A DNA stretch of 64,000 nucleotides from a bacterium. GTDB taxonomy: Bacteria > Patescibacteriota > Minisyncoccia > 1-14-0-10-42-19. Both the position numbers and the translations under genes were made by a program. This document shows positions 3,784 through 62,323 of this stretch, one piece after another; position 1 is the first letter of the stretch, and every line of letters begins with the position of its first letter. The notes below the pieces were generated by a model. It was not told the origin of the DNA. It saw nothing but the letters and a program-made list of their open reading frames with translations, and did no database searches. The stretch covers positions 17,681-81,680 of the forward strand of contig JAUYHD010000016.1 in the NCBI GenBank assembly GCA_030690215.1. The letters run 5' to 3'.

Positions 3784-4719
3784 CTATTCATTCGGGTGGG
3801 CTTTTTCTTTTTGTAAAAGATATTGATAGGCGGAGAGCGCCGCTTTTACCGCATCTCCAGCGGAAATATTGTTCTGCTTATACATTTCGTCGGTCACGTC
3901 TCCAGCCGCCCAGATTCCCTCCTTTGAAGTAGCCGCGGTTCTGTGATCAATAATAATCTCTCCGTATTTATTTTTTTCAACCAAGGTTCCCAAAAATTCC
4001 GAATTAGGAACGGCGCCGATTTCAACAAAAACCCCGGTCACATCAAGCGTACGTTCTTCCCCGCTTACCCTATCCTTATATGTAAGCCCTTTTACAAATT
4101 TATCTCCTAATACCTTAACGGTTTGCGCATTCATAATCGCGCCTTTAAACTTTTCTGATTTTTGAATATGTTCAAATGTCACCGGATCTCCTTTAATTGA
4201 GTCGGAATATTCGAGCAAATAAATTTCGGATGCGTACGGAATTAGATCCTGTACTGCTTCAAGCCCCGCGTTTCCTCCGCCGACTACCGCAACCTTCTGT
4301 CCGGCAAAAATAGGCGCATCACACGTGGAACAAAACGCAACTCCCTTACCGTTAAATTCTTCTTCGCCGGGGATTCCCATTTTTCTCCTTCGCGATCCGC
4401 TTGCTAAAATCAGCGTCCTGGCATCATAGGTACCCGTGCCCGTCGTTACCCGAAAACCACCTTCTATTTCTTCGGCTTTTTCTACCCGCTCCGAGAGAAT
4501 CTCAATGCCTTCTTGGGCGCGCGCGTGTTCTTCTAATTTTTGAGCGAGCTCGGATCCGGGAATGCTCACCATCCCAATCCAGTTAAAAATCTCCGCGGAT
4601 ACGGACGACTGCCCGCCGAATGACTCCGCAATCATAAGCGTTTTTATTTTTTTGCGCGCGGCATATACAGCTGCCGCCACCCCTCCCGGTCCTCCGCCGA
4701 TAATAATTGTGTCGTACAT
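3784..4719 (-). CDS. trxB: Thioredoxin-disulfide reductase
   Basis: MYDTIIIGGGPGG FAD motif, CSTCDA redox-active site, GGGNAG NADPH motif. Confidence 0.9.
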   Translation of the reverse strand: MYDTIIIGGGPGGVAAAVYAARKKIKTLMIAESFGGQSSVSAEIFNWIGMVSIPGSELAQKLEEHARAQEGIEILSERVEKAEEIEGGFRVTTGTGTYDARTLILASGSRRRKMGIPGEEEFNGKGVAFCSTCDAPIFAGQKVAVVGGGNAGLEAVQDLIPYASEIYLLEYSDSIKGDPVTFEHIQKSEKFKGAIMNAQTVKVLGDKFVKGLTYKDRVSGEERTLDVTGVFVEIGAVPNSEFLGTLVEKNKYGEIIIDHRTAATSKEGIWAAGDVTDEMYKQNNISAGDAVKAALSAYQYLLQKEKAHPNE

Positions 4720-4835
4720 AATTTAGTTATGAGTTAAGAGTAATAAGTTAGGAATAATAAGTTATGAGTAATGAGTTATGAGTTAAGAATAATAAGTTAA
4801 GAGTGATGAGTGATGAGTTATTTCACAGGCAAGCA
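4707..4835. repeat. Simple-sequence repeat array of GTTATGAGTTA / AGTAATGAGT units
   Basis: Tandem near-identical 10-12 nt units read directly; the same unit recurs at 55355-55375, 59843-59870 (inside miaA) and 62888-62915. Confidence 0.7.
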
Positions 4836-5026
4836 TCAAATATCAAAATTCAAATAATTTTTGCCATTAGAATTTTGGGCTTGATTTGATATTTGAGTTT
4901 TGGAATTTGGATTTTGTAGTTTGGTATTTCGCTCTAACATTCTATACGTTATAATTTTTGAATACATGGCGGAAAGATACAAGTTTTATTATACATGCTA
5001 TATGTTGCACGCTTCAAGTTACGTGT

Positions 5027-5788: not shown

Positions 5789-5967
5789 ACCCCGTTAGGC
5801 TAAATCGAAAAACGTCTTATTTGCAAAACCGCAGAAGATATTTCGATGTTCGCCCTTAATTGTACTTTTTAACACCACCATTTTGTGTTTCCCCATAAGA
5901 CGCAAAGGTTTTGGTTTCGATTTTGCCATACGGGGCATATATGTATAATATCACGCCTGTCGAGATA

Positions 5968-7176: not shown

Positions 7177-7225
7177 TCAACCCCGTTAGATGAGCAGAGT
7201 TTGGAACGCTCTACCTAATGGGGCA
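7177..7225. repeat. Palindromic REP-like element CCCCGTTAGATGAGC...GCTCTACCTAATGGGG
   Basis: One of at least six copies in the window (7177, 26752, 33549, 36513, 45838, 50455). Confidence 0.7.
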
Positions 7226-12147: not shown

Positions 12148-13095
12148 ATGATCGGTACATCCTTCGACAAAGCTCAGGACAGGCCCCACACGTCCCCAAA
12201 AGATGTTTTTCTCCATCTCTTAATGGTAGGGACGCTCTATGCGAGCGTCATCAGTTTTATTACGCTTCTCTTTCAATATATACAGTATTACTTTCCCGAT
12301 GTTCTTGATTATTCTGCCCCATCCCTTTCGTTTACAGCGCAAAGCTCAATGGCAACGCTTATTATTGTGTTCCCTGTTTTTTTGTTTCTTTCGCATCTCC
12401 TGCAAAAAGAATTCAAAGCGCATGAAGAAAAATCAAAATCGCGTCTCCGAAAATGGCTGCTTTCTTTCACGTTATTCGTTGCCGCGATTGTTATTATTGT
12501 TGACCTTGTAACCCTCATACAAAGTTTTCTTGGCGGAGAACTTACTGTCCGTTTTTTGCTAAAAAACGCAACTGTTCTTTTTGTCATAAGCGCTGTGTTC
12601 GGCTACTATCTCCACCAGCTCAAAAAAACAAAACCGGAAGCAACCCGCAACGAGCGGATATTTGTTTGGGCTGTATCATTCGTGGCCGTTCTTTCAATCG
12701 TGCTTGGTTTTATCCTTACCGGCTCACCCGCAACACAGCGCCTCATGCAATTTGACCAAGAACGCATCTGGAACCTCCAAACTATCCAGTCTCAACTTGT
12801 GTTTCATTTTCAGCAAAAAGGCGCTCTCCCCGAAACGCTTACGAACATATCGGATGACATTTCCGGATTTGCATTACCGCGCGATCCTGAAACCGGCAAG
12901 GAATATGAATACCAAAAAAGCGGCGAGTTTTCGTTCACGCTATGCGCCGACTTTAAAACAGAATATATAATCTCAGGAAAAATTCCTTCGCGCCCCATAC
13001 ACTCATTTGAAACGTGGGACCATGGAATCGGACACGCTTGTTTTGCCCGCACCATTGATCCGGATTTCTATCCTGTGCGAGAAAAAATATTGTAA
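12148..13095 (+). CDS. Membrane protein, hypothetical; the N-terminus contains repeat-derived sequence TSFDKAQDRP
   Basis: 4-5 TM helices then a soluble C-terminal domain; nt 12161-12183 CCTTCGACAAAGCTCAGGACAGG is identical to a 23-mer inside thrS. Confidence 0.5.
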   Translation: MIGTSFDKAQDRPHTSPKDVFLHLLMVGTLYASVISFITLLFQYIQYYFPDVLDYSAPSLSFTAQSSMATLIIVFPVFLFLSHLLQKEFKAHEEKSKSRLRKWLLSFTLFVAAIVIIVDLVTLIQSFLGGELTVRFLLKNATVLFVISAVFGYYLHQLKKTKPEATRNERIFVWAVSFVAVLSIVLGFILTGSPATQRLMQFDQERIWNLQTIQSQLVFHFQQKGALPETLTNISDDISGFALPRDPETGKEYEYQKSGEFSFTLCADFKTEYIISGKIPSRPIHSFETWDHGIGHACFARTIDPDFYPVREKIL

Positions 13096-15371: not shown

Positions 15372-16646
15372 ATGTTGGACATCAAATTCATACGAGAAAA
15401 CCCCGATTTGATTAAAGAAGCCGCGCGCAAAAAACGGGTAGATTTTAATGTCCTCAAACTCATTGACGTGGATAAAAAACGGCGGGAAGGGCTTGCCGAA
15501 ATTGAAAAACTCCGCGCGTTCCAAAACAAAGCATCAGATACTATCGCGACTATCAAAGACGAAACAAAGAAAAAAGCAGCCATTGAAGATTTGCGCGATA
15601 TAAAAGACAATCTTTCTAAAAAAGAATCCGAACTCAAAAAAATAGTGCCCGAATGGGAAAAACTCATGCATGATGTTCCGAACATCCCCGATCTCTCCGT
15701 ACCCGAAGGAACAACCGATGAAGAAAATACGGAAGTGCGCCAAAGTTCTAAGCCAAAACCATTCGGCTTCCCGGCGAAAGACCATGTTGAATTGCTGGAG
15801 TCCTTGGGTCTTGCCGACCTTGAGCGCGGGACGAAAGTTTCCGGATTTCGCGGATATTTTCTCAAACAAGAAGCGACCCTTCTCTCCATGGCGCTCTGGC
15901 AATTTACCATGGATACCGTAACAAAAAAGGGATATGAACCGGTTCTCGCTCCCGCGTTAGTGCGTGAAGAAAATCTTTTTGGAACGGGGCATTTTCCCCA
16001 AGCGCGCGAGGATGTATACAAGCTTGAACATGACGAATTATATCTTTCTGCAACTGCAGAAATCCCACTCATGGGATATTATCGCGATGAAATATTGGAA
16101 GAAGATATACTCCCTAAAAAATTTGTTGCGTTTTCTCCATGCTTCCGCAGAGAGGCGGGATCGCACGGCAAAGACACAAAAGGCATTTATCGCTTGCATG
16201 AATTTTTTAAAGTAGAACAATTGATTTTTGCGCCAAACGATCATGAGCTGTCTGTCCAACTGCATGAGGAATTAACCGCAAACTCGGAAAGCATTCTTCA
16301 GGCATTAGAATTGCCGTACCGGGTAGTGACGGTAGCCGCAGGACAGCTTGGGCGGGCACACGTAAAAACATACGATCTTGAGGTCTGGATTCCGTCAGAA
16401 AAACGTTATCGCGAATCCCATTCGTCTTCGTATTACCATGATTTTCAAACACGCCGGCTCAACATCCGCTACCGCGCCAAAGATGGCGAGATGCGTTTTT
16501 GCCATTCCCTTAACAACACGGCAATTGCAACCCCCCGCATTCTTATTTCTATCCTTGAAAATTATCAGCAAAAAGACGGGAGCGTGCGCATCCCGGCCGT
16601 ACTCCAAACATATCTCGGGAAAACAGCAATCAAACCAAAAAATTAA
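15372..16646 (+). CDS. serS: Seryl-tRNA synthetase
   Basis: MLDIKFIRENPD N-terminal coiled-coil arm; class II motifs (FRRE, GxGxGxxR-like) in the C-terminal half. Confidence 0.9.
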   Translation: MLDIKFIRENPDLIKEAARKKRVDFNVLKLIDVDKKRREGLAEIEKLRAFQNKASDTIATIKDETKKKAAIEDLRDIKDNLSKKESELKKIVPEWEKLMHDVPNIPDLSVPEGTTDEENTEVRQSSKPKPFGFPAKDHVELLESLGLADLERGTKVSGFRGYFLKQEATLLSMALWQFTMDTVTKKGYEPVLAPALVREENLFGTGHFPQAREDVYKLEHDELYLSATAEIPLMGYYRDEILEEDILPKKFVAFSPCFRREAGSHGKDTKGIYRLHEFFKVEQLIFAPNDHELSVQLHEELTANSESILQALELPYRVVTVAAGQLGRAHVKTYDLEVWIPSEKRYRESHSSSYYHDFQTRRLNIRYRAKDGEMRFCHSLNNTAIATPRILISILENYQQKDGSVRIPAVLQTYLGKTAIKPKN

Positions 16647-16730
16647 ATTTTTAATTTATAATTTCTAATTAATTTTTAATGATTCAATTTTGAAAACAGT
16701 TTAAAAATTTAAAATTGAAAATTAAAAATT

Positions 16731-17540
16731 ATGACTAAAGACCCCCTTCGCCGATCGCGGCGCTTTAAACGAAACAGACTTTTTAAGCGTTTTGCCCTGT
16801 TTGGAGGAGGGATTTTGGTTTGCTCAGCACTCGGCGTAGGATTTTTTTATATTCCCTATTTTTCCATTACCGCGGTCTCCCTTGAAGATCTCCGAACCCT
16901 TCCGGAAAAAGATATTACCGTGGAAATAAGCGCTCATCTGGATAGAAAAACGTGGGGGTTGCTTCCTCAAAATAATTTTTTTGTTTTTCTTTTTACCGCA
17001 TCCCGTCTGGAACAAACACTCAAACAAAAATTCCCTAAAATAAAATCAATAACAATCAAAAAACGCCCCCCCCATGCCATTGCCGTGCTGTTTGAGGAAC
17101 GGAAAATTTGGGCAACAATCTGCAAAGACGCATCTTGCTTTTACGCTGATGAGGAGGGTTTTCTTTTTGGAAAGTCATCGCGTATTTCAGGGTCGCTCTT
17201 TTTTAGCATTGAAGACAGGCGGAACGTCACCCATGCGATAGGAACGACCATCGCGAGCCCCGAAGAATTTAAAAATATAAAAACGCTCCTCCAGCGAATA
17301 GAAACCGTTACCGGCGCTTCTTTTTCAGCCCTCATGCTTTCTGGGTCAGAAGACCTTATCTCAAAATATGAAATAAAAACAAAAGATGGATGGCGCATTA
17401 TTCTTGATTCAAAAACAAACGGCGAGCTTGCCGCCGCAAACTTCATTTCCGCATTTGAGGGCATTCTCCAAAAAAATATGGAAGGTATTGATTATATTGA
17501 TGTGCGTCTAGAAAATAAAATTTTCTATAAATATAAATAA
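16731..17540 (+). CDS. FtsQ/DivIB-like cell division protein (basic N-terminus, one TM, POTRA-like)
   Basis: RRSRRFKRNR then a TM helix then a periplasmic domain; call based on topology only. Confidence 0.35.
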   Translation: MTKDPLRRSRRFKRNRLFKRFALFGGGILVCSALGVGFFYIPYFSITAVSLEDLRTLPEKDITVEISAHLDRKTWGLLPQNNFFVFLFTASRLEQTLKQKFPKIKSITIKKRPPHAIAVLFEERKIWATICKDASCFYADEEGFLFGKSSRISGSLFFSIEDRRNVTHAIGTTIASPEEFKNIKTLLQRIETVTGASFSALMLSGSEDLISKYEIKTKDGWRIILDSKTNGELAAANFISAFEGILQKNMEGIDYIDVRLENKIFYKYK

Positions 17541-22646: not shown

Positions 22647-23405
22647 ATGTCAATAAGATTCGACATCATCACAATATTTCCCGGATTATTCGCCCCGTAC
22701 TTAAACGAGTCCATATTAAAACGCGCCCAAAAGAACAAATTAATAGATATTCGCGTCCACAATCTACGTGATTTTACGAAAGCAAAACACAAAAAAGTGG
22801 ACGATAAAGCATACGGCGGAGGACCCGGCATGGTGCTCCAGGCAGAACCAATCATAAAAGCAATACGCTCAATCTTAAATTCCAAATTCCAAAATCCAAA
22901 ATCCAAACAAATTCCAAAACTAAAAATTAAAAAAACGAAAATAATTTTGTTCACTCCTGCCGGGAAACAATTTGATGCTAAAATAGCGCAAAATTTTGCA
23001 TCACGCTATGATCATATCATTATGATCGCCGGCCGTTACGAAGGTGTTGACCATAGAATTTATAAAGTGCTTAAAAATATGCTTATTACTCATAACTCAT
23101 CACTTACAACTCTTTCCATAGGACCGTATGTCCTCACAGGAGGCGAACTCCCCGCCCTCATTATGATTGATGCCATAAGCCGTCATATTCCCGGCGTACT
23201 CGGTAAAAACGAATCGCTCGAAGAAAAACGCGGGGGCGCAGGCATTCCCGCGTATACTCGGCCGGAAAAAATCACTTGGAACAAGAAAACATATGCTGTC
23301 CCAAAAATACTCCTTTCGGGCAATCATAAAAAAATTGCCGCTTGGCTTGCCGCCAAGCGAGCCTCGCCAAAAATGCCAAGGAATATGAGAAGAAAAGGAG
23401 CGTAA
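22647..23405 (+). CDS. trmD: tRNA (guanine37-N1)-methyltransferase with an in-frame AT-rich simple-repeat insertion (nt about 22876-22920)
   Basis: MSIRFDIITIFP...YGGGPGMVL; insert encodes NSKFQNPKSKQIPKLKIKK from AAATTCCAAATTCCAAAATCCAAAATCCAAA. Confidence 0.9.
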   Translation: MSIRFDIITIFPGLFAPYLNESILKRAQKNKLIDIRVHNLRDFTKAKHKKVDDKAYGGGPGMVLQAEPIIKAIRSILNSKFQNPKSKQIPKLKIKKTKIILFTPAGKQFDAKIAQNFASRYDHIIMIAGRYEGVDHRIYKVLKNMLITHNSSLTTLSIGPYVLTGGELPALIMIDAISRHIPGVLGKNESLEEKRGGAGIPAYTRPEKITWNKKTYAVPKILLSGNHKKIAAWLAAKRASPKMPRNMRRKGA

Positions 23406-25378: not shown

Positions 25379-25393
25379 TATGGCCATAACGCA

Positions 25394-25490
25394 AAGCGTA
25401 AAACGAAAAGTTCAAAACTAATGTGAAATAATTTCAACAAAGTTGAAATTATTATTCCTAAGTTTTACGTTTTTATTTTTGAGCTTTTAG
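25394..25490. repeat. 95-bp AT-rich hairpin element (GTAAAACGAAAAGTTCAAAAC...GTTTTACGTTTTTATTTTTGAGC); near-identical copy inside 16S rRNA V1 at 34063-34170
   Basis: About 95% identity over about 95 nt read directly. Confidence 0.8.
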
Positions 25491-27852: not shown

Positions 27853-30800
27853 ATGAAAAAAAATCTGTTCGGGGTTCTGACACTTGGAATCCTGGTTATT
27901 GTATCAAGTTTCGTTTCTACATCCGATGTTGCCGTAGCAGCACCTGTCCCTGGCAGCATAACCGTGTTTGCTTCTGATACTGGTGTTAACGACGCAACCG
28001 TGGGTACGCGAATTTGGGGCAATCCTCAAAATGTTTCAAGCAGTGATGACGTGTCCGCCCAGGCAAACTTCATAGAGGACCAGGATTTGATTACGCGGTA
28101 TCTCCGCGTTGCTCCTCAATCACTATCTGCAATCCCCGCAGGAAGCACTATTACCGGCATACAAGTTAGCGTTGAAAAGAAAAGGGGGGCAGCGGTTACT
28201 GTTAGGGATTATTCTATACGCCTTTATAAATCGGCGGGTTTTATAGGAAACAACAAAGCCGATACTGGCACTAACTGGCCCGCGTCAGACCAAACCTTCA
28301 CGTATGGGGGGTCGGGAGACTTATGGGGCGCCACATGGACAAGAGACGAAGTAGTAAATAATTTGCAGGTTGGGATTTCCGCCCAAAATACTTTTAACGG
28401 AGGGGCAGGGGCCGTCATTGATTCTATTCAATTCACTATTTGGTATGAATACACTCCGCCCGCCCCAACCGTAATTGAAGCAGACAACACCGTGTTTGCT
28501 GCAACTACCGGCGTCAACGACACAACCGTGGGTACAAAAATTTGGGGTACTACCAATAATATCGCGGCAAGCGATGATGCGTACTCACAAGTAAACCTTT
28601 TGACAGGCGGAGATATATCAAGGTATCTCCGTGTTGCTCCGCAGTCACTTTCTTCAATTCCTGAAGGGAGCACAATTAAAGGCATACAAGTCAGCATTGA
28701 GAAAAGTAGAGGTACGCAATTTGTTAAAGATTATTCTATACGCCTCTACAAATCCGGAACGGGCTACATAGGCAGCGACAAAGCTAACACAAGCGTTAAC
28801 TGGCCTGCTTTAGATGAAATAGTTACCCATGGAGGTAATGGTGATTTGTGGGGGACCACATGGACCAGAGATGAAGTGGTTAATAATTTGGAAGTGGGAA
28901 TTTCCGCCCAAAACCAAACTACCACTTCAGCAGGAGCAAAGATCGATTCCATACAGTTTACTATTTGGTATGAATACACTCCGCCCGCCCCAACCGTTGA
29001 CCTAAAAGCAAACAGCGCCAACGGACCAATATCAATTGACTACAACACAGGTGCAACACTTTCGTGGGCTTCGACAAACGCAACATCGTGTGCCGCATCA
29101 AACGCATGGTCCGGAACAAAAGGCACATCAGGGTCAGAATCAACCGGAAATCTTACAGCATCAAAAACATACACGATAACGTGTACAGGGACAGGGGGAA
29201 GCGCAAATGATAGCGTTACAATAAATGTCCTCGCACCACCGCCCCCACCTCCTCCGCCACCGCCTCCTCCGCCTCCTCCGGCAACAACTGTATGCCAAGG
29301 CTCTGTAACTCTCTATCAACACATCAACTATATCGGTTATTCAGCGGGTTTTGATGTTGGCACCTACACCCTTGCACAACTTCAAGCATGCGGAGTTATT
29401 AACAACGACATATCTTCAATGAAGGTACCGAATGGCTACCAGGCAACGTTATATGATGGAGACAACTATTCAGGAATAAGTCTTACGCGAACTACTGACG
29501 ACAGCACATTGGTAGATGACGGGTTTAATGATTTAACTACATCGCTACGCGTAACAACCATTTCAACAACACCCACTCCTCCACCTCCGCCACCTCCATC
29601 GCCGGAACCTTCTCCAACTCCCCCACCGCCACCTCCTCCAACAAGCAACCTTGCTTTCCAAATTAATGACAAAATCCAAGTAACATCAGGACCTCTCAAT
29701 GTAAGAAGTTGCGCAAGCTTATCTTGCAACTCTCTTGGTATACAACCAACAGGTTCTTTGGGGTCAATTATCGGAGGCCCAACATTTGCAGATGGATTTT
29801 TCTGGTGGAATATCAATTACGATAACGCTCCGGATGGTTGGTCGGTTGAAAATTTCTTAACTCTCGTAACCTCAACTCCTCTACCACCTCCTCCACCGCC
29901 ACCGCCTCCAGCACCAGAACCTTCTCCAGCTCCACCGCCGCCACCTCCTCCAACAAGCAACCTTGCTTTCCAAATTAATGACCGTATTCAAGTAAACACA
30001 GGGAGCTCGGAATTTAATCTTAATGTCCGATCAACAGCAAATGGCACGATCGTTGGACAGCAATCAAACGGTGCGTTGGGAACTATTATCGGTGGGCCTC
30101 AAAGTGCTGGCAGCCACACATGGTGGAATGTTAATTTTGATGTAGCGCCTGATGGATGGGTTGCTGGAGATTTTCTTGTCACCAGTTCATCTCCTTCTCC
30201 AACACCTCCACCTCCGCCACCTCCTCCAGCACCGGAACCTTCTCCAACTCCCCCACCGCCACCTCCTCCAACAACAACCCTACTTTCTATTCCCGGAACC
30301 ATACAAGCAGAAAGCTATAAAGTAGGGGGCGAGGGTATTGGGTATCATGACACTACCCCAACAAACGATGGGGGCGCCGGGACTCGCAATGATGGAGTGG
30401 ATATAAAAGATGTCCCGGGTGAAGGTTTGACTATCGGATTTACAAATATCGGCGAATGGCTTGCATACGATGTAAGTGTCTCCCAAGGAGGGACATACTC
30501 TATTGATCTCCGCATCGCAAACGGAGAAACAACAAATCGTTCTCTCCACCTGGAAATAGACGGAACAAATAAAACCGGTTCGGTTACCGTGCCATCTACC
30601 GGATCATGGAACACACAAACAACTATTACAGTGCCCAATGTTTCCCTTACCCAAGGAACTCATGTATTGCGCGTTGTGTTTGACAATACCCCGCTTGATC
30701 TCAATTGGATGTTGTTTAATTTTGTTTCTTCCGGAAGTCCGTCTGCGCCTTCTGTGTCCACAAAATTCCAGATAAACGACCGCGTGCAAACAACAGACAA

Positions 30801-33548: not shown

Positions 33549-33598
33549 TTGACCCCGTTAGATGAGCGAGCTTTGAGAAGCTCTATCTAATGGGGCTT
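33549..33598. repeat. Palindromic REP-like element followed by a promoter-like TTGACC-17-TATACT
   Basis: CCCCGTTAGATGAGCGAGCTTTGAGAAGCTCTATCTAATGGGG then GCTTGACCTCAATAATAAAAGGATTATACT. Confidence 0.6.
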
Positions 33599-33960: not shown

Positions 33961-36192
33961 CTTTTTGAGAGTTTGATCCTAGCTCAGGATGAACGCTGGC
34001 GGCGTGGATAAGGCATGCAAGTCGTACGGTCGTGCCTCTCTATCGCTCAGCACTCCCTAAGCTCAAAGTGTAAAACGAAAAGTTCAAAACTAATGTGAAA
34101 TAATTTCAACAAAGTTGAAATTATTATTCCTCAGTTTTACGTTTTTATTTTTGAGTTTTTAGTTTGAGTGCCGAACGGCAGTGAGGCACGACAGTGGCAG
34201 ACGGGGTAGTAACACGTAGGTACATACCACTGAGACAAGAATAACCCAGAGAAATCTGGGATAATACTTGATAGTCTAGTGATCGATTTTCCCTCACAAG
34301 ATGTTTTAATTTTTAATTCTCAATTATCAATTTTCAATAAAAATTTGGAAATTGAAACTTTCTCGCCTCGCCGTAGCTTTAGCGAAGCGGAAACATTGTC
34401 CGCCAGAGGCGGATCCTCCTCCGGAGGAAAAATTCAAAACAGTCCTTGCGGGTAAAAATCGGTTACTAGTAAAGGTTCGTAAGAACCGCTCGGTGAATGG
34501 CCTGCGGGCTATCAGCTTGTTGGTGAGGTAACGGCTCACCAAGGCTATGACGGCTAGGGGGTGTGAGAGCATGGCCCCCACCAATGGAACTGAGACACGG
34601 TCCATACATCTACGGATGGCTGCAGTCGAGAATATTGGGCAATGGGCGAAAGCCTGACCCAGCGACGCCGCGTGCAGGATGAAGGCCTTCGGGCTGTAAA
34701 CTGCTTTTATGGGGGAGGAATCCCCTCCTTGAGGTTGAGTGTGGTACAATCACGCTATGTATTATGTATATATCCTGAAATTAAATAATGAAAAATTATA
34801 CATCGGATACACTGTGGATTTAAAAAGGCGTATTGTTGAACACGAAACAGGAATGAGTATGCATACTAAAAAATTTTTACCTTGCATGCTTGTTTATTAT
34901 GAAGCATACAAATCACGAAAAGATGCGATGAAGCGTGAGAAAAATCTAAAAAAATTCAAAAGTTCATACAGACAATTAAAAATACGTATTGCTTCAAGTA
35001 TATTCGACACCAAGGAGGGGATGACGTTACCCCATGAATAAGGGCTTGCTAACCTCGTGCCAGCAGCCGCGGTAATACGAGGGGCCCAAGCGTTATCCGG
35101 AATCACTGGGCGTAAAGGGTTCGTAGGGGGTTGTATTAGTCCTATGTTAAAGCCTTCGGCTTAACCGAAGAAATGCATAGGAAACGGTATAACTGGAGGG
35201 TGTGAGAGGCTGATGGAACTCACGGTGTAGGGGTGAAATCCGTTGATATCGTGGGGAACACCAAATGCGAAGGCAATCAGCTGGCGCATTCCTGACCCTG
35301 AAGAACGAAAGCGTGGGGATCGAAAAGGATTAGATACCCTTGTAGTCCACGCCCTAAACGTTGATGACTAGCTATTGGAAGTATCGACCCTTCCAGTGGC
35401 GTAGCTAACGCGTTAAGTCATCCGCCTGGGAATTACGATCGCAAGATTAAAACTCAAAGGAATAGACGGGGACTCGCACAAGCGGTGGAGCATGTGGTTC
35501 AATTCGATGATAAGCGAAAAACCTTACCAGGGCTAGAAATTCTAGTGAAGTCGACCCGAAAGGGACGATGTCTCACAAGGACACTAGGACAGGTGCTGCA
35601 TGGTTGTCGTCAGTTCGTGGTTTGAACTGTTCCCTTAAGTGGGTCAACGAACGCAACCCCCGTTGCCTGTTATACATGTCAGGCAAGACTGCCCCTCACT
35701 TTGCGCACAAGCGCAAAGTGAGTTTACTAGTTACGCCTTGCTCTAGTTTGCTAGTTTAAATTTTACAACTAGAAAACTAAAGTGAGCAGAGCGAACGTAA
35801 CTAGAAAACTCACTTTGTTCGTTTGCGAACAAAGTGAGGGGAGGAAGGTGGGGATGACGCCAAATCAGCATGGCCCTCGACGTCCTGGGCTACACACATG
35901 CTACAATGGCACGTACAAAGGGCCGCAAAAGAGCAATCTGGAGCAAATCCCATCAAAACGTGCCCTAGTTCGGATTGAGGTCTGCAACTTGACCTCATGA
36001 AGCTGGAATCGCTAGTAATCGCAGATCAGCACGCTGCGGTGAATACGTTCTCGAGTCTTGTACTCACCGCCCGTCAAGTCAGGGAAGTCGGGAGTACCCG
36101 AAGTGCCAGGTATCTGGCCCGAAGGTAAGCTCGATAACAAGGACTAAGTCGTAACAAGGCACGGCTAGCGGAAGCTGGTCGTGGATCATTAT
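33961..36192 (+). rRNA. 16S rRNA gene, about 2.23 kb, with four insertions. (a) 34063-34170 hairpin element; (b) about 34275-34480 V2 expansion; (c) about 34720-35020 GIY-YIG ORF; (d) about 35694-35848 palindromic insertion. The 3' end is ...GGATCATTATCT and lacks CCUCC.
   Basis: Conserved blocks AGAGTTTGATCCTAGCTCAG, GTGCCAGCAGCCGCGGTAATAC, GGATTAGATACCCTTGTAGTCC, GCATGTGGTTCAATTCGATG, TACACACCGCCCGTCA, AAGTCGTAACAAGG read in order. Confidence 0.9.
34757..35041 (+). CDS. GIY-YIG nuclease-family ORF embedded in the 16S rRNA V3 insertion (possible intron-encoded homing endonuclease)
   Basis: MYYVYILKLNNEKLYIGYTVDLKRRIVEHETG is a canonical GIY-YIG motif; the ORF 3' end runs into the conserved TGACGTTACC rRNA sequence. 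Confidence 0.7.
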   Translation: MYYVYILKLNNEKLYIGYTVDLKRRIVEHETGMSMHTKKFLPCMLVYYEAYKSRKDAMKREKNLKKFKSSYRQLKIRIASSIFDTKEGMTLPHE

Positions 36193-36512: not shown

Positions 36513-36590
36513 CATTGACCCAGTTAGATGAGCAAGCTTTGCGAAGCTCTATCTAACGGGGTTGACAATACTCCCCCATTCTGTAGAATA
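36513..36590 (+). promoter_or_regulatory. REP-like palindrome whose 3' arm supplies a -35 (CTAACGGGGTTGACA) for a TTGACA-17-TAGAAT promoter; about 200-nt structured leader upstream of the MoxR-vWA gene
   Basis: Sequence read directly; leader contains hairpin TGCCTTTTTCTATGCATAAAAGGCA. Confidence 0.45.
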
Positions 36591-43955: not shown

Positions 43956-43959
43956 CATA

Positions 43960-44095
43960 ACATTAAAAACCAAATTCCAAATAACAAATATCAAACAATA
44001 TCCAATTTTCAATAGGCAAGCCCCAAACCGTGTTTTAAATTTGTAATTTTGAATTTGTTTGAGATTTGGATTTTGGTATTTGTCATTTTATCAAA
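43960..44095. repeat. AT-rich simple-sequence region of CAAAT/ATTCCAAA-type units (family shared with 4845-4930, the trmD insert, the 16S V2 insert and 62200-62260)
   Basis: Read directly. Confidence 0.55.
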
Positions 44096-46199: not shown

Positions 46200-46545
46200 T
46201 CTATAGTAACGAAAAAGGGGCGGTATGTAAAGCCCCGTTTGGCTAAATCGAAAGCCGCGTCTACGTCTGACGGATACTATACCCGATTAAAGAAACAGCA
46301 GTCCATTGTCTGGGCTATCGAGGTTCGCTAGTAGACGCGACAAGGAAGACGATTCGATTTTGCCTAACGGGGTAAAGCCCCGTAGAGCAATATCGCATGA
46401 TATGTCATGCGTTCGCCTTTGGGGAGAAAAGACCACCGCGCTCGCTTATTTTTCTTGCATTAGGCATTTCCGCACAATGACCCATAAGAATGCATTATGC
46501 GATTTTGCCTAACGGGGTAAAGCCCCGTTTGGCTAAATCGTCATG
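46200..46545. repeat. Composite MITE-like repeat cluster (two nested element families) homologous to 3300-3720 and 26745-26960
   Basis: See 3300-3720 and 26745-26960. Confidence 0.6.
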
Positions 46546-47951: not shown

Positions 47952-48575
47952 CTATATAAACTTACCGCAAAATGAGCGCCTATGGATGTCGCATAATCCG
48001 TACTTTCTTAGGGCTTTTTCATGTGCTCGTGTGCCGTACCCTTTATGAATATCAAAACCGTATTTGGGGTAAACTTTTGCAAGACGCACCATTCTCCTAT
48101 CGCGCGTTACTTTTGCCATGATTGAAGCGGCGGCAATAATAGGCATCCGCCTATCTCCTCCTATAATAGTCTGCTGATTTTTGTATTCTTGAGGCGCTCG
48201 TAACCCTCCGTCTAATAAAATACGGGAATTATGAATCAAGAATCTAGAATCAAGAAGCGCTATTTTTCTTAACGAACGACGAATCGCAAGATGAGTTGCT
48301 CTCGCAATGCCAATCTTATCAATCACCGAATGGCTTACCGAAGAAGTAGCATAAAACAATCTATTCTCACGCGAATGCCTGCGCAAAACCTTAAACCATT
48401 CTTCCCGCTTCTTAACCGAAAGCGCCTTGGAATCTTTAATTCCCCTAAACAGTTTCGAATTTCGTGCTTCATATTTCGAATTTACCATTGTCGCTACTGC
48501 GCAAATGGTTATCGGTCCCGCGAGCGGTCCTCTCCCCACTTCGTCTATACCGAGAATAAATCTATGCTTTGCCAT
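47952..48575 (-). CDS. rnhB: Ribonuclease HII
   Basis: ILGIDEVGRGPLAGP motif; start set at MAKHRF. Confidence 0.85.
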   Translation of the reverse strand: MAKHRFILGIDEVGRGPLAGPITICAVATMVNSKYEARNSKLFRGIKDSKALSVKKREEWFKVLRRHSRENRLFYATSSVSHSVIDKIGIARATHLAIRRSLRKIALLDSRFLIHNSRILLDGGLRAPQEYKNQQTIIGGDRRMPIIAAASIMAKVTRDRRMVRLAKVYPKYGFDIHKGYGTRAHEKALRKYGLCDIHRRSFCGKFI

Positions 48576-55100: not shown

Positions 55101-55365
55101 GCCTATCATTATTGGGGGCATTATTGAAAGCGTTAAAAAGATAACAACAAAAAAGGGGGAACCAATGGTATTTTTATCGCTTCTTGACCTTGCGGGCTCA
55201 ATTGAAGTTGTTGTATTCCCGCGCGTTCTAAAATCATGCGGGCAGTTTATAGAAGCGGACAAGGGAATCGCGCTCAAAGGCAAGATATCGCACCGAAACG
55301 GCAATGTGAGCATTATTGCCGACGGAATCAAATCTATTGAACCACCAGAAACGAGTAATGAGTAA
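52150..55365 (+). CDS. dnaE: DNA polymerase III alpha subunit
   Basis: PHP N-terminus FVHLHVHSHYSLLDG, polymerase core, OB-fold C-terminus; 1071 aa. Confidence 0.95.
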   Translation: MSFVHLHVHSHYSLLDGLAKIDELVREAKELGMPAIALTDHGNMYGAIEFYKKAKKAGIKPIIGIEAYIAARNASDRVHGVDDKRYHLILLAKNNTGYENLLKLVTLSNLEGFYYKPRIDKEMLRKHSEGLIALSACLTGEISRALLAKNWDNAKALALEYQDIFGKDNFYIELSHHPNIPNHVEVQEGLKKLARELKIPMVATQDVHYLKKEDQQAQDILVAVQTNTKVDDEDRMTMKADDFSLTSPDEMKEAFNDVPEAIANTLKIANQIDLQIHLGEIKLPHFEVPSGHTPDTYLKELAEAGLMRRFNNKPSREARDRLAYELDVIEKTKFSSYFLIVQDFVNWAKNNGIVVGPGRGSAAGSLIAYSLNITNVDPLQYGLLFERFMNPERISPPDIDIDFADTRRDEVIEYARKKYGDDHVAQIITFGTMAARAAIRDTGRALGMEYGFCDKVAKMIPFSVGMTLAKALKANPEFAEEYRDNEQARRLVDSARKLEGVVRHASVHACGVVITKDPLTDTVPLQYAVSRDASGEKQIIVTQYSMNVIEDLGLLKMDFLGLKNLSIIEEAINLVETRTGKRIDIDAIPIDDAKVYKGLADGNTVGVFQLESGGMTRYLKDLKPTTIEDIIAMVALYRPGPMELIPSFIKRKQGEEKITYLHPKLAPILENTYGIGVYQEQMMRIARDLAGYTLPEADTLRKAIGKKIKSLLDEQQEKLIDGMIKNKIDKHTANQIWELFPPFARYGFNRCHAAPYAIIAYQTAWLKTHYPLEFMTAFMNADEKDVDRIAYLVKECQNLGIKVLPPDLNRSNAGFTPQREKDELAIRFGLRTIKNVGSNVVDMIMQERDRNGPYQTLAGLLERIPTKDINKKSMESLVKSGAMDSLGERNQMLENMDTILAFHKESSKGKQTGQNSLFGMQGGPSYTPTLQLKEVKAAASEDRLKWEKELLGLYISGHPLDKFRGLLETKKINTEFAKALKEETPIIIGGIIESVKKITTKKGEPMVFLSLLDLAGSIEVVVFPRVLKSCGQFIEADKGIALKGKISHRNGNVSIIADGIKSIEPPETSNE

Positions 55366-55653
55366 TAAGTTATGTCCCGCTATTTACTTTAAATATTTTT
55401 AAATTATTGTATAGCGGGATCCCGCCATTCTATACGTTATAATCTTTGAATAAATGGCGGGAAGTTATGGGTTATTTAAAAATATAAAAAACCGAGCGCA
55501 GTGCTCGGTTTTTTTGTTTAAAAAGAACCATTAGCATAAAAGTATACGACTGCCCCGATAGCAGCGATCAGAACTATAGAAACAAAAAAAACGATAAGCG
55601 CTACTCTTGTCTGCCTATTAAGTTCCGAGTCTTCGTCTTCATCGCCCCACATT

Positions 55654-56809: not shown

Positions 56810-58624
56810 ATGCCAAAAAATCAAGCAGACATTGACCATATCCGCCATTCCCTTTCGCACCTATTGGCGATGGCGGTACTCAAAAAATTCCCTAAGGCAA
56901 AACTCGGTATCGGCCCCACAATAGAACATGGGTTTTATTATGATTTCTTGTTTCAGAATCATGAATCTGCCCTTCGACAAAGCTCAGGACAGGGAATCAA
57001 GAATCAAGACCTCAAAGACATAGAAAAGGAAATGAAAGAACTCATAAAAAGAAACCTCTTATTTTCAGGAAAAAAGATAACAGCAAAAGACGCTGAAAGT
57101 ATCTTTAAAAACCAGCCATTTAAAAAAGAATTGGCAAAGGATTTTAAAAAAGAAAAGAGGACGCTTACCGCATACGCAACATGCCCCCCTAATTCTAAAT
57201 TCATAATTCATAATTCCACAAATCAACAAAATGACTGTTTTGTTGATTTGTGCAAGGGCGGACATGTTACAAACACCAACGAAATAAATCCCGATGGATT
57301 TACGCTCACCAAAATTGCTGGTGCCTATTGGAAGGGAGACGAAAAAAAACCCCAGCTTACGCGCATCTATGGTGTCGCGTTCGCATCCAAAAAAGAATTG
57401 GATGATTATCTTGCGATGCAAGCGGAAGCGGAACGCCACGACCATAAAAAACTTGGACCCGAACTTGATTTGTTTACATTCTCCGAGCTTGTAGGGCCCG
57501 GATTGCCTCTCTGGACTCCAAAGGGAACGCTCCTGCGAAACATTCTTGATGATTTTGTATGGGAACTCCGCAAAAAAGCGGGATACGCTCAAGTAGACAT
57601 CCCCCATATCACCAAAAAAGCGCTGTACGAAAAAAGCGGTCACTGGGAAAAATTCCAAAACGAACTATTTAAAATAGAAACCCGCGAAGGGCATATTTTT
57701 GCGATGAAACCGATGAACTGCCCGCACCACACCCAGATTTACGCGCGAAAGCTTTGGAGCTGGCGCGAACTCCCCCAACGATACGCATCCACCACAAAAG
57801 TCTACCGCGACGAGCAATCGGGCGAACTTGCGGGGCTCTCCCGCGTACGCGCGATTACACAGGACGATGCGCATGTTTTTTGCCGCGCAGATCAGGCAAT
57901 TGGAGAAATGGAAAAAATTTGGGATATCATAACCGAATTTTATAAAAAATGCGGATTTTCCGATTTCACCATACGGCTTTCAACACATGATCCCAAACAC
58001 CCAAAAAACTATCTCGGCAAGCCTAACGTATGGAAAAAGACCGAAGCGCAATTAAAAGAGCTTATTGCAAAAAAACACGGCAAAGATTTTGTCTCTCTCC
58101 CCGAAGCCGCTTTTTACGGCCCTAAAATAGATTTTATGTTCCGCGACTCGCTCGGACGGCGTTGGCAATTAGCAACAATACAGCTTGATATGAATCTGCC
58201 CGAACGCTTTGATTTGTATTGCATTGACGAAGCAGGCAAAAAAGAACGGATTGTAATGATTCATGCCGCCATCATGGGTTCTATTGAGCGCTTCCTTGCG
58301 ATTTTAATTGAGCATACCGCAGGCGTATTTCCTTTTTGGCTCGCGCCAACGCAAATCCAAATCCTCACCGTCAACGACAAAGTATCGGCATACGCGGAGT
58401 CTGTTAAAAAAGAATTGGAAGCTCGTAATATCCGCGTAACGCTTGACGACAGAAACGAATCCATCGGGAAAAAAATCCGCGAAGCGGAAATGCAAAAAAT
58501 TCCTTATAGTTTTATCCTCGGCGAAAAAGAAAAAGACGCCGGCACCATCTCGGTTCGTGCACACGGCAAAAAAGATATGGGCGTAATGACTCTCCCGGCG
58601 TTTCTCAAACAGGCAGAAAAATAA
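56810..58624 (+). CDS. thrS: Threonyl-tRNA synthetase (lacks the N-terminal TGS domain) with a short in-frame repeat-derived insertion (NHESALRQSSGQG)
   Basis: HSLSHLLAMAV...GPTIEHGFYYDF; class II catalytic core; anticodon-binding C-terminus; nt 56971-56993 identical to 12161-12183. Confidence 0.9.
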   Translation: MPKNQADIDHIRHSLSHLLAMAVLKKFPKAKLGIGPTIEHGFYYDFLFQNHESALRQSSGQGIKNQDLKDIEKEMKELIKRNLLFSGKKITAKDAESIFKNQPFKKELAKDFKKEKRTLTAYATCPPNSKFIIHNSTNQQNDCFVDLCKGGHVTNTNEINPDGFTLTKIAGAYWKGDEKKPQLTRIYGVAFASKKELDDYLAMQAEAERHDHKKLGPELDLFTFSELVGPGLPLWTPKGTLLRNILDDFVWELRKKAGYAQVDIPHITKKALYEKSGHWEKFQNELFKIETREGHIFAMKPMNCPHHTQIYARKLWSWRELPQRYASTTKVYRDEQSGELAGLSRVRAITQDDAHVFCRADQAIGEMEKIWDIITEFYKKCGFSDFTIRLSTHDPKHPKNYLGKPNVWKKTEAQLKELIAKKHGKDFVSLPEAAFYGPKIDFMFRDSLGRRWQLATIQLDMNLPERFDLYCIDEAGKKERIVMIHAAIMGSIERFLAILIEHTAGVFPFWLAPTQIQILTVNDKVSAYAESVKKELEARNIRVTLDDRNESIGKKIREAEMQKIPYSFILGEKEKDAGTISVRAHGKKDMGVMTLPAFLKQAEK

Positions 58625-59305: not shown

Positions 59306-60238
59306 ATGAACAAGTCAAGAAACCAAAAACTTATTGTCCTCCTCGGCCCCACCTCATCCGGTAAATCCGCGTTGGGGATAAAACTTGCGCGCAGATTCAA
59401 CGGCGAGATTGTTTCGGCCGATTCGCGTCAGGTCTACAAAGGGTTGAATATATCTTCGGGTAAAATCACAAAAAAAGAAATGGGGGGTATTTCGCATTAC
59501 TGCCTTGACCTCGTCTCCCCAAAAACACACTACACGGTAATCCAATTTAAAAAAGAAGCGGAGAAAACCATTAAAAAAATAGAAAAAAGAGGTAAGATTC
59601 CTTTTGTTGTGGGGGGTAGCGCGTTTTATATCAAAGCGCTCGCCGATAATCCTGCCGTTCCCGAAGTGCCGGCAAACTGGAAATTGCGCCGAACGCTTGA
59701 AAAAAAATCAGCAGACGTGCTTTTTGCCATGCTCAAAAAATTGGACCCCCGCCGTGCGCGTACTATTGAAGCAAAAAATAAACGCCGTCTCATCCGCGCA
59801 ATAGAAATTGTGAAGACTACGGGCAAGCCCGTGCCTCCAAAAGTTATGAGTTATGAGTTAAGAGTTAAAAACAATGACTTGTTATTTCTTGGGATAAAGA
59901 TAGACGACAAAATACTTAAGAAAAAAATAGAGAAACGGCTGGATGAGCGCCTGCGCAAAGGAATGATACAAGAAATCAAAAAACTCCACGCTAGTCCGCC
60001 GGCTGGCGGAGGCGTGAGCTGGAAACGGCTTGATGAATTAGGGCTTGAACCTCGCTGGATAAGCAAATTTTTACAGAAAGAAATCACAAAAAAAGAAATG
60101 CGCGATAAACTCCTCCGCGATATATTCCGCTTTGTAAAACACCAGTACACCTGGTGGAAAAAAGAAAAGCGCATCCACTGGATACGCTCGCAAAGAGAGG
60201 CCGAGAAGCTGATACAAAAATTTCTAATTATCCGATGA
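59306..60238 (+). CDS. miaA: tRNA dimethylallyltransferase with an in-frame GTTATGAGTTA repeat insertion (VMSYELRV, nt 59843-59870)
   Basis: LIVLLGPTSSGKSALGIKLA P-loop; SADSRQVYKGLNI. Confidence 0.85.
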   Translation: MNKSRNQKLIVLLGPTSSGKSALGIKLARRFNGEIVSADSRQVYKGLNISSGKITKKEMGGISHYCLDLVSPKTHYTVIQFKKEAEKTIKKIEKRGKIPFVVGGSAFYIKALADNPAVPEVPANWKLRRTLEKKSADVLFAMLKKLDPRRARTIEAKNKRRLIRAIEIVKTTGKPVPPKVMSYELRVKNNDLLFLGIKIDDKILKKKIEKRLDERLRKGMIQEIKKLHASPPAGGGVSWKRLDELGLEPRWISKFLQKEITKKEMRDKLLRDIFRFVKHQYTWWKKEKRIHWIRSQREAEKLIQKFLIIR

Positions 60239-60694: not shown

Positions 60695-62179
60695 TTATGA
60701 TAACATCTTTTTCAATAATTCCTGAAGCATCGCGGGGTTGGCTGATCCTTTTGTCGCCCTCATCGTCTGCCCCACCAAAAACTTAAACGCATTTTCTTTG
60801 CCTTTTTTAATATCGGCGACAGCGTCGGGGTTTTCTTCAATAATTTTCTTAATTATTTTTTCTAGCTCGCCCGTGTCGCTCACCTGGCGCAATCCTTTTT
60901 CATCAACAATTTGCGATGGATCACCTCCTTTTTCAACCATCTCTAACAACACGTCTTTTGCAACACGGGAAGATACTTCGTTCGCGTGTATCATCTTTAT
61001 TAGTTCTGCAAAATTTTCGGGGGTTACCAAAAGCTCTCCCCACGGGATTTCTTTTTCTTTTACAATCCCCCGCAGGTCAGAGGTTAAATAATTCAGCGCG
61101 GTTTTCTTTATTTTTTCCTTATTTCCGCCCGTCACCCATTCAGATAATTCAGAAAGGCCTGCCTCTAAAAACGCGAGGAACGCCGTATCGTCAAGCGCCA
61201 TGATAAGCGCGTCATCCGAAAGCCCGTATTCGGCAGTAAGGCGCGCGCGCCTCTGGTATGGAAGCTCCGGCAATTCCGCTTTGAGTATTTCTATATCAAA
61301 TTCTTTGTGCGGATACACGGGAGGCAGGTCGGGTTCGGGAAAATACCGATAATCATGCGCTTCTTCTTTTGAGCGCTGGGAAAATGTTTTTTGTTTTTCT
61401 TCATCCCATCCGCGCGTCTCTTGTGTTACTTTTTCTCCTTTCTCCAACAATTCCCCTTGGCGCTTAATTTCGTAGGTGATTGCGCGTTCCACCGCACGAA
61501 ATGAATTTAAATTTTTTACCTCCACCTTCGTTCCAAGTTTTATTTTTGAAGTTTGATCATTAGCATTTGTTTGAAAATTGTCTGCCGGAAGCAGACTGAT
61601 ATTCGCTTCAATCCGGAGTTGCCCTTTTTCCATATCGGCATCAGACGCACCCAAATACCGCAACAACCGTTGGAACTCTTCGGAAAATTCGCGGACTTCA
61701 GAAGCGCTCGTAAAGTCGGGCTCCGTTACCATTTCCATCAACGGAACGCCTGCGCGATTAAAATCAACGAGAGTCGCCTGTTTTTCGTGCACAAGTTTGC
61801 CCGCGTCTTCTTCCAGGTGCACTCGCGTAATGCGGATTTCTTTTTGGACTTTCGAAAGATAAAGTTTGCCGTGCTCTACGAACGGATGCTTATACTGCGA
61901 AATTTGGTATCCTTTCGGCAAATCGGGATAAAAATAATTTTTACGATCAAACTGGGAATATTCGGATATCGTGCCATCAAGCGCAAGACCGATTCGCAAC
62001 ACATGGCGGATTGCTTCTTTATTTGCGACAGGCAATATACCCGGATGACCCATACACACAGGACAGACATTGATATTAGGATGCGCCTCATTCGGATCAT
62101 TTAAAGAATCGCAAAACATCTTTGTTTTGGTCTTGAGTTCCGCATGTATTTCTAGTCCAATTGTGGGTTGATATCCCAT
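60695..62179 (-). CDS. gatB: Asp-tRNA(Asn)/Glu-tRNA(Gln) amidotransferase subunit B
   Basis: MGYQPTIGLEIHAEL...CPVCMGHPG zinc site; C-terminal YqeY-like domain. Confidence 0.9.
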   Translation of the reverse strand: MGYQPTIGLEIHAELKTKTKMFCDSLNDPNEAHPNINVCPVCMGHPGILPVANKEAIRHVLRIGLALDGTISEYSQFDRKNYFYPDLPKGYQISQYKHPFVEHGKLYLSKVQKEIRITRVHLEEDAGKLVHEKQATLVDFNRAGVPLMEMVTEPDFTSASEVREFSEEFQRLLRYLGASDADMEKGQLRIEANISLLPADNFQTNANDQTSKIKLGTKVEVKNLNSFRAVERAITYEIKRQGELLEKGEKVTQETRGWDEEKQKTFSQRSKEEAHDYRYFPEPDLPPVYPHKEFDIEILKAELPELPYQRRARLTAEYGLSDDALIMALDDTAFLAFLEAGLSELSEWVTGGNKEKIKKTALNYLTSDLRGIVKEKEIPWGELLVTPENFAELIKMIHANEVSSRVAKDVLLEMVEKGGDPSQIVDEKGLRQVSDTGELEKIIKKIIEENPDAVADIKKGKENAFKFLVGQTMRATKGSANPAMLQELLKKMLS

Positions 62180-62323
62180 ATAATCTTTAGTATACTAGGA
62201 AAATATTCAATTATCAATTTACAATTTTCAATCAATTTTCGATGTTTAAAAATTAAAAATTGTCCCTCGATTCTGCTCTGGACCCTGAGCTTATCGAAGG
62301 GGAAATTAAAAATTCTTAATTTT

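Follow-up and report, generated by a model that had tools for sequence, protein, structure and literature searches.

Degenerate heptanucleotide arrays in trmD and other conserved genes, intergenic DNA and 16S rRNA of a Patescibacteria genome: a probable counterpart of cyanobacterial STRRs

Heptanucleotides are the commonest long simple-sequence repeats (SSRs) in many bacteria, and polymerase slippage has been proposed as their origin (PMC4679880 and PMC4692102, citing Mrazek 2007). Heptamer families such as STRR (short tandemly repeated repetitive), GGGAATC and TAACTGA have been described, mostly from intergenic regions and without an assigned function (PMC4679880, PMC4692102). Here we analyze heptanucleotide arrays in a 64,000-nucleotide stretch of a Patescibacteria genome (contig JAUYHD010000016.1; the window in what follows) and in particular a degenerate array in trmD, the gene of an essential tRNA methyltransferase, which is probably a microsatellite of the STRR kind. 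The arrays share with cyanobacterial STRRs and other heptamer long SSRs the 7-nt unit, the small number of families per genome and their short, imperfect and dispersed character (PMC4679880, PMC4692102). STRRs are mostly non-coding and have no function assigned to them; like the arrays here, they sometimes occur as inverted pairs able to form stem-loops. Head-to-tail 7-nt units, an excess specific to period 7 and few families over many loci, all of which characterize STRRs, were found here too. The differences lie in the host, which belongs to the Patescibacteria, in the A/T-rich units, and in the location of about half of the arrays in open reading frames (ORFs), including essential housekeeping genes; moreover, arrays return in the same protein loops throughout the phylum, with turnover of the unit.

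The TAACTGA repeats of marine Beggiatoaceae, Cyanobacteria and Bacteroidetes are a second parallel: as heptamer direct repeats they cluster just 5' of start codons, stop codons exclude one of their orientations from ORFs while the other can be translated as a 7-residue repeat, and they are spread over several phyla (PMC4679880). TAACTGA is, however, one dominant unit across taxa, whereas the units here are numerous and specific to a genome, and none of the arrays seen was made of TAACTGA. No description of heptamer repeats in Patescibacteria was found in the literature searched. Other bacteria had already been reported to have an excess of such repeats; new here are the phylum of the host, the hotspots that recur in essential proteins, and the use of the same modules in rRNA.

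The array-bearing ORF of 252 amino acids was identified as TrmD (Pfam tRNA_m1G_MT, E = 9e-41), and the identities of the other array-bearing ORFs were confirmed with Pfam in the same way. Tandem Repeats Finder (TRF) located a period-7 array at 22877-22918 with 6.4 copies and 81% matches, confirming both the simple-sequence stretch and the encoded peptide NSKFQNPKSKQIPK that an initial inspection of the letters alone (the sequence-only reading) had reported. Its units are AAATTCC, AAATTCC, AAAATCC and AAAATCC, followed by AAACAAATTCC; together with a decayed tail the feature covers 22877..22937 on the + strand, is translated within ...NSKFQNPKSKQIPKLK... and adds about 15 residues. Alignment with solved TrmD structures from the PDB showed a 15-residue insert at the position of the array, and in an AlphaFold2 model residues 81-94 form a coil of pLDDT <50 between a helix (66-78) and a strand (97-108). 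On this model, the array is predicted to encode a disordered extension of a TrmD surface loop. An inverted-repeat search of the window revealed no inverted partner for it, and an origin by inverted duplication, as in thrS (see below), was dropped for this array. A second insert in trmD (ITHNSS; 23088-23099, within the feature 23084..23104), overlooked by the sequence-only reading, was detected by pattern search and by comparison with the syntenic relative L002; it belongs to the AGTTATG family, reversed (- strand).

The TrmD of L002 is 71% identical in amino acids to that of the window, and its gene lacks the trmD array. In L214 and L215, whose TrmD proteins are 61-68% identical to that of the window, the trmD arrays align with it base for base, including the sub-variant AAACAAATYCCAAA, and a difference of 15 nt separates L214 from L215 within the orthologous array. 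Since the arrays can be aligned, that of the window is not private to its lineage, contrary to what the sequence-only reading had expected, but inherited or shared with L214 and L215. Some arrays, this AAATTCY array among them, are long-lived.

The excess of such repeats was then compared with chance. Period-7 self-similar segments numbered 9 at a strict and 16 at a loose cut in the window, against none in 20 dinucleotide shuffles, and periods 5, 6 and 8 gave 0-3 segments. Dimers with up to two mismatches were found 15 times for AGTTATG (0.5 expected), 11 times for AAATTCC (2.8 expected) and 6 times for GAATCAA (1.2 expected) in these 64 kb. The arrays fall into few unit families (AAATTCC, AGTTATG, GAATCAA and CAATTTT), which recur in miaA, thrS, rnhB and gatB, at the dnaE and efp stops, in hairpins of 5' untranslated regions (5'UTRs) and between genes, and in an insertion in the V2 region of 16S rRNA. 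The reuse of motifs in coding, intergenic and rRNA sequence that had been read from the letters is thus far above what base composition gives in the window.

These families bear on the idea that the periodicity is a by-product of selection on the proteins, which would favor flexible loops rich in Lys, Asn and Ser, for instance for tRNA binding, in an AT-rich genome. The affected proteins are all nucleic-acid binders, and nearly every orthologue, array-free ones included, has a Lys-rich TrmD loop. Codon selection, however, would produce period 3 and not 7; units found in the genes are also present in DNA that is not translated and in rRNA, perfect nucleotide repeats extend over synonymous sites, and the frame and orientation of the arrays change from gene to gene. 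We regard this explanation as very improbable.

In order to extend the comparison, a scan of GTDB genomes with the window TrmD yielded 80 loci, mostly from Patescibacteria, which with L002 amounted to 1.19 Mb. The closest proteins came from metagenome-assembled genomes (MAGs) of Patescibacteria/Parcubacteria, with Niyogibacteria nearest at about 70-76%. Tandem arrays in this sequence numbered 92 for period 7, against 5, 2 and 14 for periods of 4, 5 and 6 nt and 13, 15, 1, 3 and 16 for periods of 8, 9, 10, 11 and 12 nt, and no period-7 array was present in control segments of 50 kb each from E. coli and Variovorax. The period-7 excess is thus found across the sampled Patescibacteria. Units vary among genomes (AAAAGTT, AAATTCT, AAACTCC, ACTACAA, GCGACAA and others) and tend to be shared within a locus: 59 of 222 same-locus pairs had the same unit, against 35 +/- 7 after permutation, a value reached in 2 of 1000 permutations (p ~0.002). 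Arrays were enriched outside ORFs: with mechanical ORF calls, ORFs made up 84.5% of the sequence yet held only 48% of the arrays entirely, although about half (50 of 104) still lay wholly within long ORFs. Inverted-unit array pairs were 8 of the 31 neighboring pairs.

Of 66 loci, 17 showed a strong period-7 signal in the TrmD loop between the GGGPGM and GKxF motifs; these arrays were made of more than 10 different units, and some of them were perfect 4-copy arrays (L006, L027, L032 and L067). Similar peptides, such as NSKFKILNSKQIPNSKFKK, occupy the same loop in many Parcubacteria. The nearest neighbors of these TrmD arrays (66-83% flank identity) usually carried another unit or none. This pattern makes the loop a recurrent hotspot in which the unit turns over rapidly. 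Arrays at the offset of the second trmD insert were present in L009, L016 and L017, which makes it a second TrmD hotspot. In a Sungbacteria-like genome (L013 10291-10503), the two hotspot loops were observed to carry mutually complementary CCAATTT and AAATTGG arrays about 180 nt apart in the gene. Outside this sample, seven contigs of 44-65% GC chosen for another motif, the 22-mer described below (L092, L104, L115, L158, L163, L169 and L206), contained 51 period-7 arrays in 690 kb, including one of 233 nt. Since these contigs are diverse and rich in arrays, the heptamer excess reaches well beyond Patescibacteria among uncultivated bacteria.

Given that the window comes from a MAG, and that a contig of an independent assembly (L001) breaks exactly within a 99-nt repeat of the window, we considered whether the arrays could be artefacts of assembly or binning. 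Logan assemblies of SRR13727534 were 100% identical to the window over trmD, thrS and miaA, and since they are independent, this disfavors an artefact. The affected genes are, besides, all in frame, and orthologous arrays come from unrelated samples and assemblers. An artefact is therefore hardly credible.

The other coding arrays showed which sites and which units are tolerated in genes. The sequence-only reading had interpreted the repeats of miaA and thrS, like that of trmD, as in-frame simple-sequence insertions. In miaA, TRF found 3.7 copies of AGTTATG at 59842-59867 (feature 59839..59870, + strand), and the translation VMSYELRV stood as read. Alignment placed the array in a linker that is variable among all orthologues, where it replaces sequence with essentially no gain of length, so that it is no net insertion. 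Of its 26 nt, 25 are the same in the closest relative, L084, against about 73% for the whole gene (binomial p ~0.003). It also shares an 18-nt identity, in the same order of unit variants, with an intergenic array at 4771-4788. A second miaA feature, the PPAGG insert CCGCCGGCTGGCGGA (59996..60010, + strand), is a GC-rich mini-hairpin motif lacking in L084, L085 and L087.

In thrS, the 23-mer CCTTCGACAAAGCTCAGGACAGG (56971..56993, + strand; ALRQSSGQG) adjoins two GAATCAA units at 56994-57009 and is lacking in the relative L085. A second thrS insert, PNSKFIIHNSTNQQNDC (57188..57238, + strand), consists of four AATTCNA units inside an inverted copy of the downstream CFVDLCKGGH codons; it forms a perfect 16-bp stem, with 17 of 18 nt matching the reverse complement (57214-57255) and a fold z-score of -4.5. 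The thrS gene of L212 has the same inverted architecture with four perfect copies of CTACAAA, a unit resembling an inverted copy of the local TTTGCAA. Such an architecture is the product expected from strand-switch (quasi-palindrome) replication errors, and the paired Cys of insert-bearing ThrRS would result from this inverted duplication. Neither insert is present in the Niyogibacteria relative; both sites hold other inserts in many orthologues (e.g., CPTSTNYKLQTTNC and GKLSPNSKFLIPNSNL; NYKLQTTN-type and NSKF-type).

Two further genes carry repeats of this kind in loops. In rnhB, a GAATCAA-family array (48226..48258, - strand; array read on the + strand) overwrites the loop LLDSRFLIHNS without changing its length, and comparison with relatives revealed an additional MVNSKY insert at 48471-48488. 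The gatB insert QTNANDQTSKIKL (61535..61573, - strand) is a decayed period-7 array, and its site has a different insert in L087 and none in L085. At the end of dnaE, an AGTAATG array (55347..55374, + strand) spans the stop codon and adds ETSN to the C-terminus; the array that the sequence-only reading had placed at this stop was found at 55353-55374. Arrays of the AGTAATG/AGTTATG type, with stops in all frames, were observed at or just past the dnaE and efp stops (55347-55374 and 62894-62918), and that of efp is syntenic in the relative L087 (5707).

The second inserts of trmD and thrS, the rnhB and gatB cases and the miaA PPAGG insert are all additional to the cases first reported. When window-specific inserts of at least 3 residues were listed against syntenic relatives, in well-conserved genes only, they comprised the dnaE C-terminus, two each in thrS, miaA and trmD, and one each in gatB, rnhB and a KH protein. 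All of them were either heptamer-type AT-rich arrays or GC-rich hairpin/22-mer motifs.

All coding insertions had been said to preserve the frame, which had been read as selection against frameshifting. In-frame inserts are, as such, what survivorship leaves; the units themselves are more telling. With pure AGTTATG, or its complement CATAACT, all frames meet a stop at intervals of 21 nt, and the coding copies carry variants that remove the stop: TTAAGAG in miaA and TCATCAC in trmD. AAATTCC has no stop in any of the six frames, and it is this unit that spreads in TrmD loops. The mutated stop-creating units would thus be the informative sign of selection.

Two known classes of coding repeat were discarded in the light of these data. 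Phase-variable contingency loci also have an in-frame SSR whose unit is not a multiple of 3, but the arrays described here have degenerated, reside in essential genes and all keep the frame; no frameshifted alleles were seen, and an on/off switch would be lethal. In the Borg tandem repeats, nucleotide repeats in ORFs likewise add low-complexity disordered segments; their units are, however, divisible by 3, perfect and recent, whereas here the unit is 7 nt, most arrays are decayed, and only net lengths divisible by 3 survive (PMC9879509).

The three intergenic arrays that had been noted were all recovered, at 4725-4821, 43965-44081 and 62202-62261. The first, with 13.9 copies of a 7-nt unit by TRF, belongs to an AGTTATG-family array of about 14 units (4711..4822, + strand) directly 5' of a trxB-like gene. 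It is followed by intergenic CAAAT and GGAATTT arrays in opposed orientations (4835..4929), for which a weak hairpin is predicted (fold z-score -0.86). The second forms an AAATTCC-family hairpin (43958..44092, - strand; fold z-score -2.3); it lies between the stop codon of rnc and the true start of smc, MYLKRLELNGFKSF at 43958, and is non-coding 5'UTR. The third consists of CAATTTT and AATTTTT arrays (62202..62261, + strand) between gatB and efp, adjoined at 62265-62300 by the 22-mer hairpin in a degenerate copy. Another intergenic hairpin is formed by an inverted pair of AATTTTT arrays (16643..16732; fold z-score -2.6). The mechanical ORFs of smc and efp were observed to begin too far upstream (43958-44012 and 62168-62330), because open-frame heptamer arrays extend ORFs.

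The 16S rRNA gene is 2236 nt long. Aligned to Rfam, it proved to be extended at the helix tips of V1, V2 and V3, by insertions of 142, 173 and 288 nt that fold as long hairpins (z-scores -3.4 to -3.7). The V2 insertion (173 nt) does hold an array, as had been read: it belongs to the CAATTTT family (34304..34338, + strand) and shares TCAATTATCAATTT with 62207-62227. STRRs also occur in the RNase P RNA gene of heterocystous cyanobacteria, a parallel to this case. The rRNA intervening sequences and the rRNA insertions of the candidate phyla radiation are comparable as well: the 16S insertions at the V1, V2 and V3 apical loops form extended stem-loops. Intervening sequences are excised by RNase III; the hairpins inserted here differ in being built from heptamer and hairpin modules also found between genes. 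Of such modules, a 99-nt hairpin was found in two copies 97% identical, one intergenic, 3' of a glycosyl-hydrolase gene (25392-25490), and one in the V1 insertion of helix 6 (34064-34162); it is within this repeat that the Logan contig L001 breaks off. The 16S gene is unlinked to the 23S gene, with tRNA-Ile and tRNA-Ala more than 14 kb away. A 47-nt box, TTGACCCCGTTAGATGAGC...CTCTATCTAATGGGG, occurs at 7177-7223, 33549-33595 and 36515-36561, on both sides of the 16S gene and beside tRNA-Ala, and may serve in rRNA/tRNA processing or as a promoter.

Several intergenic and rRNA arrays are well-folding inverted pairs (z -2.3 to -4.5), far beyond shuffles, and arrays stand directly 5' of the trxB, smc, efp and rnc starts. 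These features are consistent with arrays being selected nucleic-acid elements, acting as hairpins for RNase III or autoregulation, as sites for cold-shock/S1-type proteins (one per heptamer) or as translational regulators in the 5'UTR. CspB binding and a translational role have been proposed for the TAACTGA repeats (PMC4679880), conservation of the miaA and trmD arrays exceeds the background of their genes, and the arms of the rpsK-rnc hairpins of L214 and L215 remain complementary in spite of different units. On the other hand, a hairpin 5' of rnc is not general, since only 2 of 32 loci exceeded all 12 controls; units are not conserved between genomes, arrays lie on either strand and in any context, and complementarity arises from inverted copying without selection. 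We consider such a function unlikely. The hairpins concerned (L214 5944-6016 and L215 5894-5977) are syntenic and built from ATGAACT and ATGAGTT heptamers, respectively. A conserved RNase III autoregulatory hairpin 5' of rnc was rejected as a rule, long hairpins being common throughout these genomes. The same fate befell a shared 'AGGCAAGC' core that would have joined the array hairpins, as that context was found at two sites of the window only and is ordinary coding sequence elsewhere. Neither arrays nor hairpins matched an Rfam family, all hits being sub-threshold chance matches.

The 23-mer of thrS proved to be a different matter. It occurs exactly twice in the window, against none in 100 shuffles; the second copy (12161..12183, + strand) encodes codons 5-12 of a DUF5671 membrane-protein gene, as the sequence-only reading had seen. 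Its classification as a simple-sequence repeat did not hold. An exact scan of metagenomes with the pattern CCTTCGACAA[N0-1]GCTCAGGACAGG showed the 22-mer in at least 120 contigs (L089-L208) of 0.36-0.72 GC with dissimilar flanks. The base at -1 is invariably a pyrimidine, and CT prevails at +1/+2, which gives a unit of about 24 nt, (Y)CCTTCGACAAGCTCAGGACAGG(CT). Copies occur singly, as 24-nt tandem arrays, in genes and in hairpin loops; stems of at least 7 nt flank 18% of them, against 4% of controls. The motif is present in other Patescibacteria loci, including the inside of the L022 trmD, and in the cultured Variovorax paradoxus, where it lies inside a REP-like palindrome between convergent genes (L209 1501-1524). 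It had no Rfam family, and no paper matching its peptide or DNA words was found in the literature searched. A physical link to heptamer arrays was not retained, as the association was weak (4 of 29 copies within 60 nt, against 5.6% at random positions); the two co-occur at the contig level only. The 23-mer is therefore a separate, cross-phylum phenomenon.

REP, BIME and MITE elements are the closest parallel to this motif: like them, the motif of 22-24 nt and the hairpin of 99 nt are both short and scattered, tend to form hairpins and frequently lie between convergent genes, as in the Variovorax locus. REPs are, however, species-specific, whereas the 22-mer is identical over contigs of 36-72% GC and is also found in frame within genes. 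This raises the question of whether small non-autonomous mobile elements, MITE- or REP-like, have carried the arrays into genes, intergenic DNA and rRNA, slippage being minor. The 97% identity of the 99-nt hairpin between an intergenic site and 16S V1, the exact 23-mer at two unrelated sites and its motif in so many contigs, the common order of unit variants in miaA and at 4771-4788, and the unit families shared within genomes all speak for such carriage, as does a distinct family in the window, about 150 nt long and bearing terminal inverted repeats. It is in that family alone that MITE/REP hallmarks (terminal inverted repeats, target duplications, defined ends) were found; the trmD, miaA and rnhB arrays have neither terminal inverted repeats nor target duplications, no transposase is nearby and none was seen in the 64-kb window. 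Units at orthologous sites differ between close relatives, perfect arrays with lineage-specific units are more easily made in place, and the left arm of the thrS insert was copied from thrS itself. Overall, carriage by mobile elements seems improbable as the main source of the arrays.

The family in question is MITE-like and has members at 3304-3449, 5787-5938, 46227-46375 and 46372-46540, with CCCCGTTWGGCWAAATCG / CGATTTWGCCWAACGGGG as inverted ends; the members at 3304-3449 and 46227-46375 are reverse complements of each other, and none matched Rfam at the gathering score.

A broader proposal would unite the arrays, the GC-rich mini-hairpins and the cross-phylum unit Y-CCTTCGACAAGCTCAGGACAGG-CT as one undescribed and widespread repeat-generating system of uncultivated bacteria. 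Such a system could be hairpin-primed or strand-switch copying, or a host-independent mini-element, which writes modules into protein loops, rRNA tips and intergenic hairpins. We regard it as speculative and rather doubtful. If true, a single repeat system would be a major unrecognized source of evolution in protein and rRNA length, and the cross-phylum exactness of the 22-mer would suggest that conserved machinery, or an agent that moves horizontally, is at work.

The account that we favor, with reservations, is one of STRR-like heptanucleotide microsatellites produced by slippage and strand-switch inverted duplication, dispersed as families and filtered by selection. Replication slippage would duplicate 7-nt units head to tail. 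Strand switching would sometimes copy arrays with adjacent sequence in inverted orientation, giving the hairpins between genes, in 16S helix tips and in thrS. One unit family might then spread to many loci by recombination, gene conversion or an undiscovered carrier. In genes, the survivors would be those that lie in insertion-tolerant loops, in frame and without stop-creating units; this filter would explain why the same few loops of TrmD, ThrRS, MiaA, GatB and RNase HII are hit repeatedly. The surviving arrays, probably without function of their own, would finally decay by point mutation or be replaced. Recent slippage is supported by the perfect 4-copy arrays and by the 15-nt difference between the L214 and L215 trmD arrays, and strand switching by the inverted repeat in thrS and the inverted-unit array pairs. 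For a filter by selection speak the enrichment of arrays outside ORFs, the low pLDDT of the trmD insert, the stop-removing variants of the coding copies and the repeat classes to which all window-specific inserts in conserved genes belong. The spread of motifs through the genome that the sequence-only reading had proposed is borne out in part, by the reuse of motifs, the sharing of units within genomes and the copied 23-mer and 99-nt hairpin, but the 23-mer is not part of the same phenomenon. What that reading observed is thus confirmed and extends further, and its interpretation was partly right.

Several results weigh against this account. The window arrays are degenerate, which makes them old rather than active, and no copy-number polymorphism was seen among near-identical contigs (L085/L086, L087/L088, and the window versus L001/L083), which were 100% identical. 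The miaA array is conserved above its gene and the trmD array can still be aligned between proteins 61-68% identical, which hints at constraint or homogenization; conservation above the gene level is not predicted by pure slippage and decay. Slippage alone does not explain one unit family at many loci and gives no reason for the unit length of 7 nt. Finally, the relatives were sampled around trmD, so that the hotspot count is no unbiased census of genomes.

Patescibacteria have tiny genomes with odd insertions in rRNA and proteins. Microsatellites of 7 nt and short hairpin modules would provide a concrete source for many of these, and in the genes compared here every recent insert in a conserved protein traces to these repeat classes. 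Disordered protein segments could thus stem from mutational bias rather than adaptation. In practical terms, the arrays affect gene calling, as they lengthen spurious ORFs and shift predicted starts (smc and efp), and they bear on marker-gene and 16S alignments and phylogenies. The unexplained preference of bacteria for 7-nt repeats is extended to a new major lineage, with natural hotspot loci.

Two further ORFs of the window showed unusual sequence. RpiB has a GC-rich insert of about 27 residues (1107-1188, - strand), LAPSGSTALPPNGRGSPLGGGTAGES, which contains TTCGACTGCGCTC and small GC hairpins and is akin in style to the 22-mer family. A 1660-aa ORF at 27853-32835 has large internal repeats with CCTCCGCC-type runs, and it is missing from the otherwise syntenic L002, where the counterpart of position 27556 is directly followed by that of 33439.

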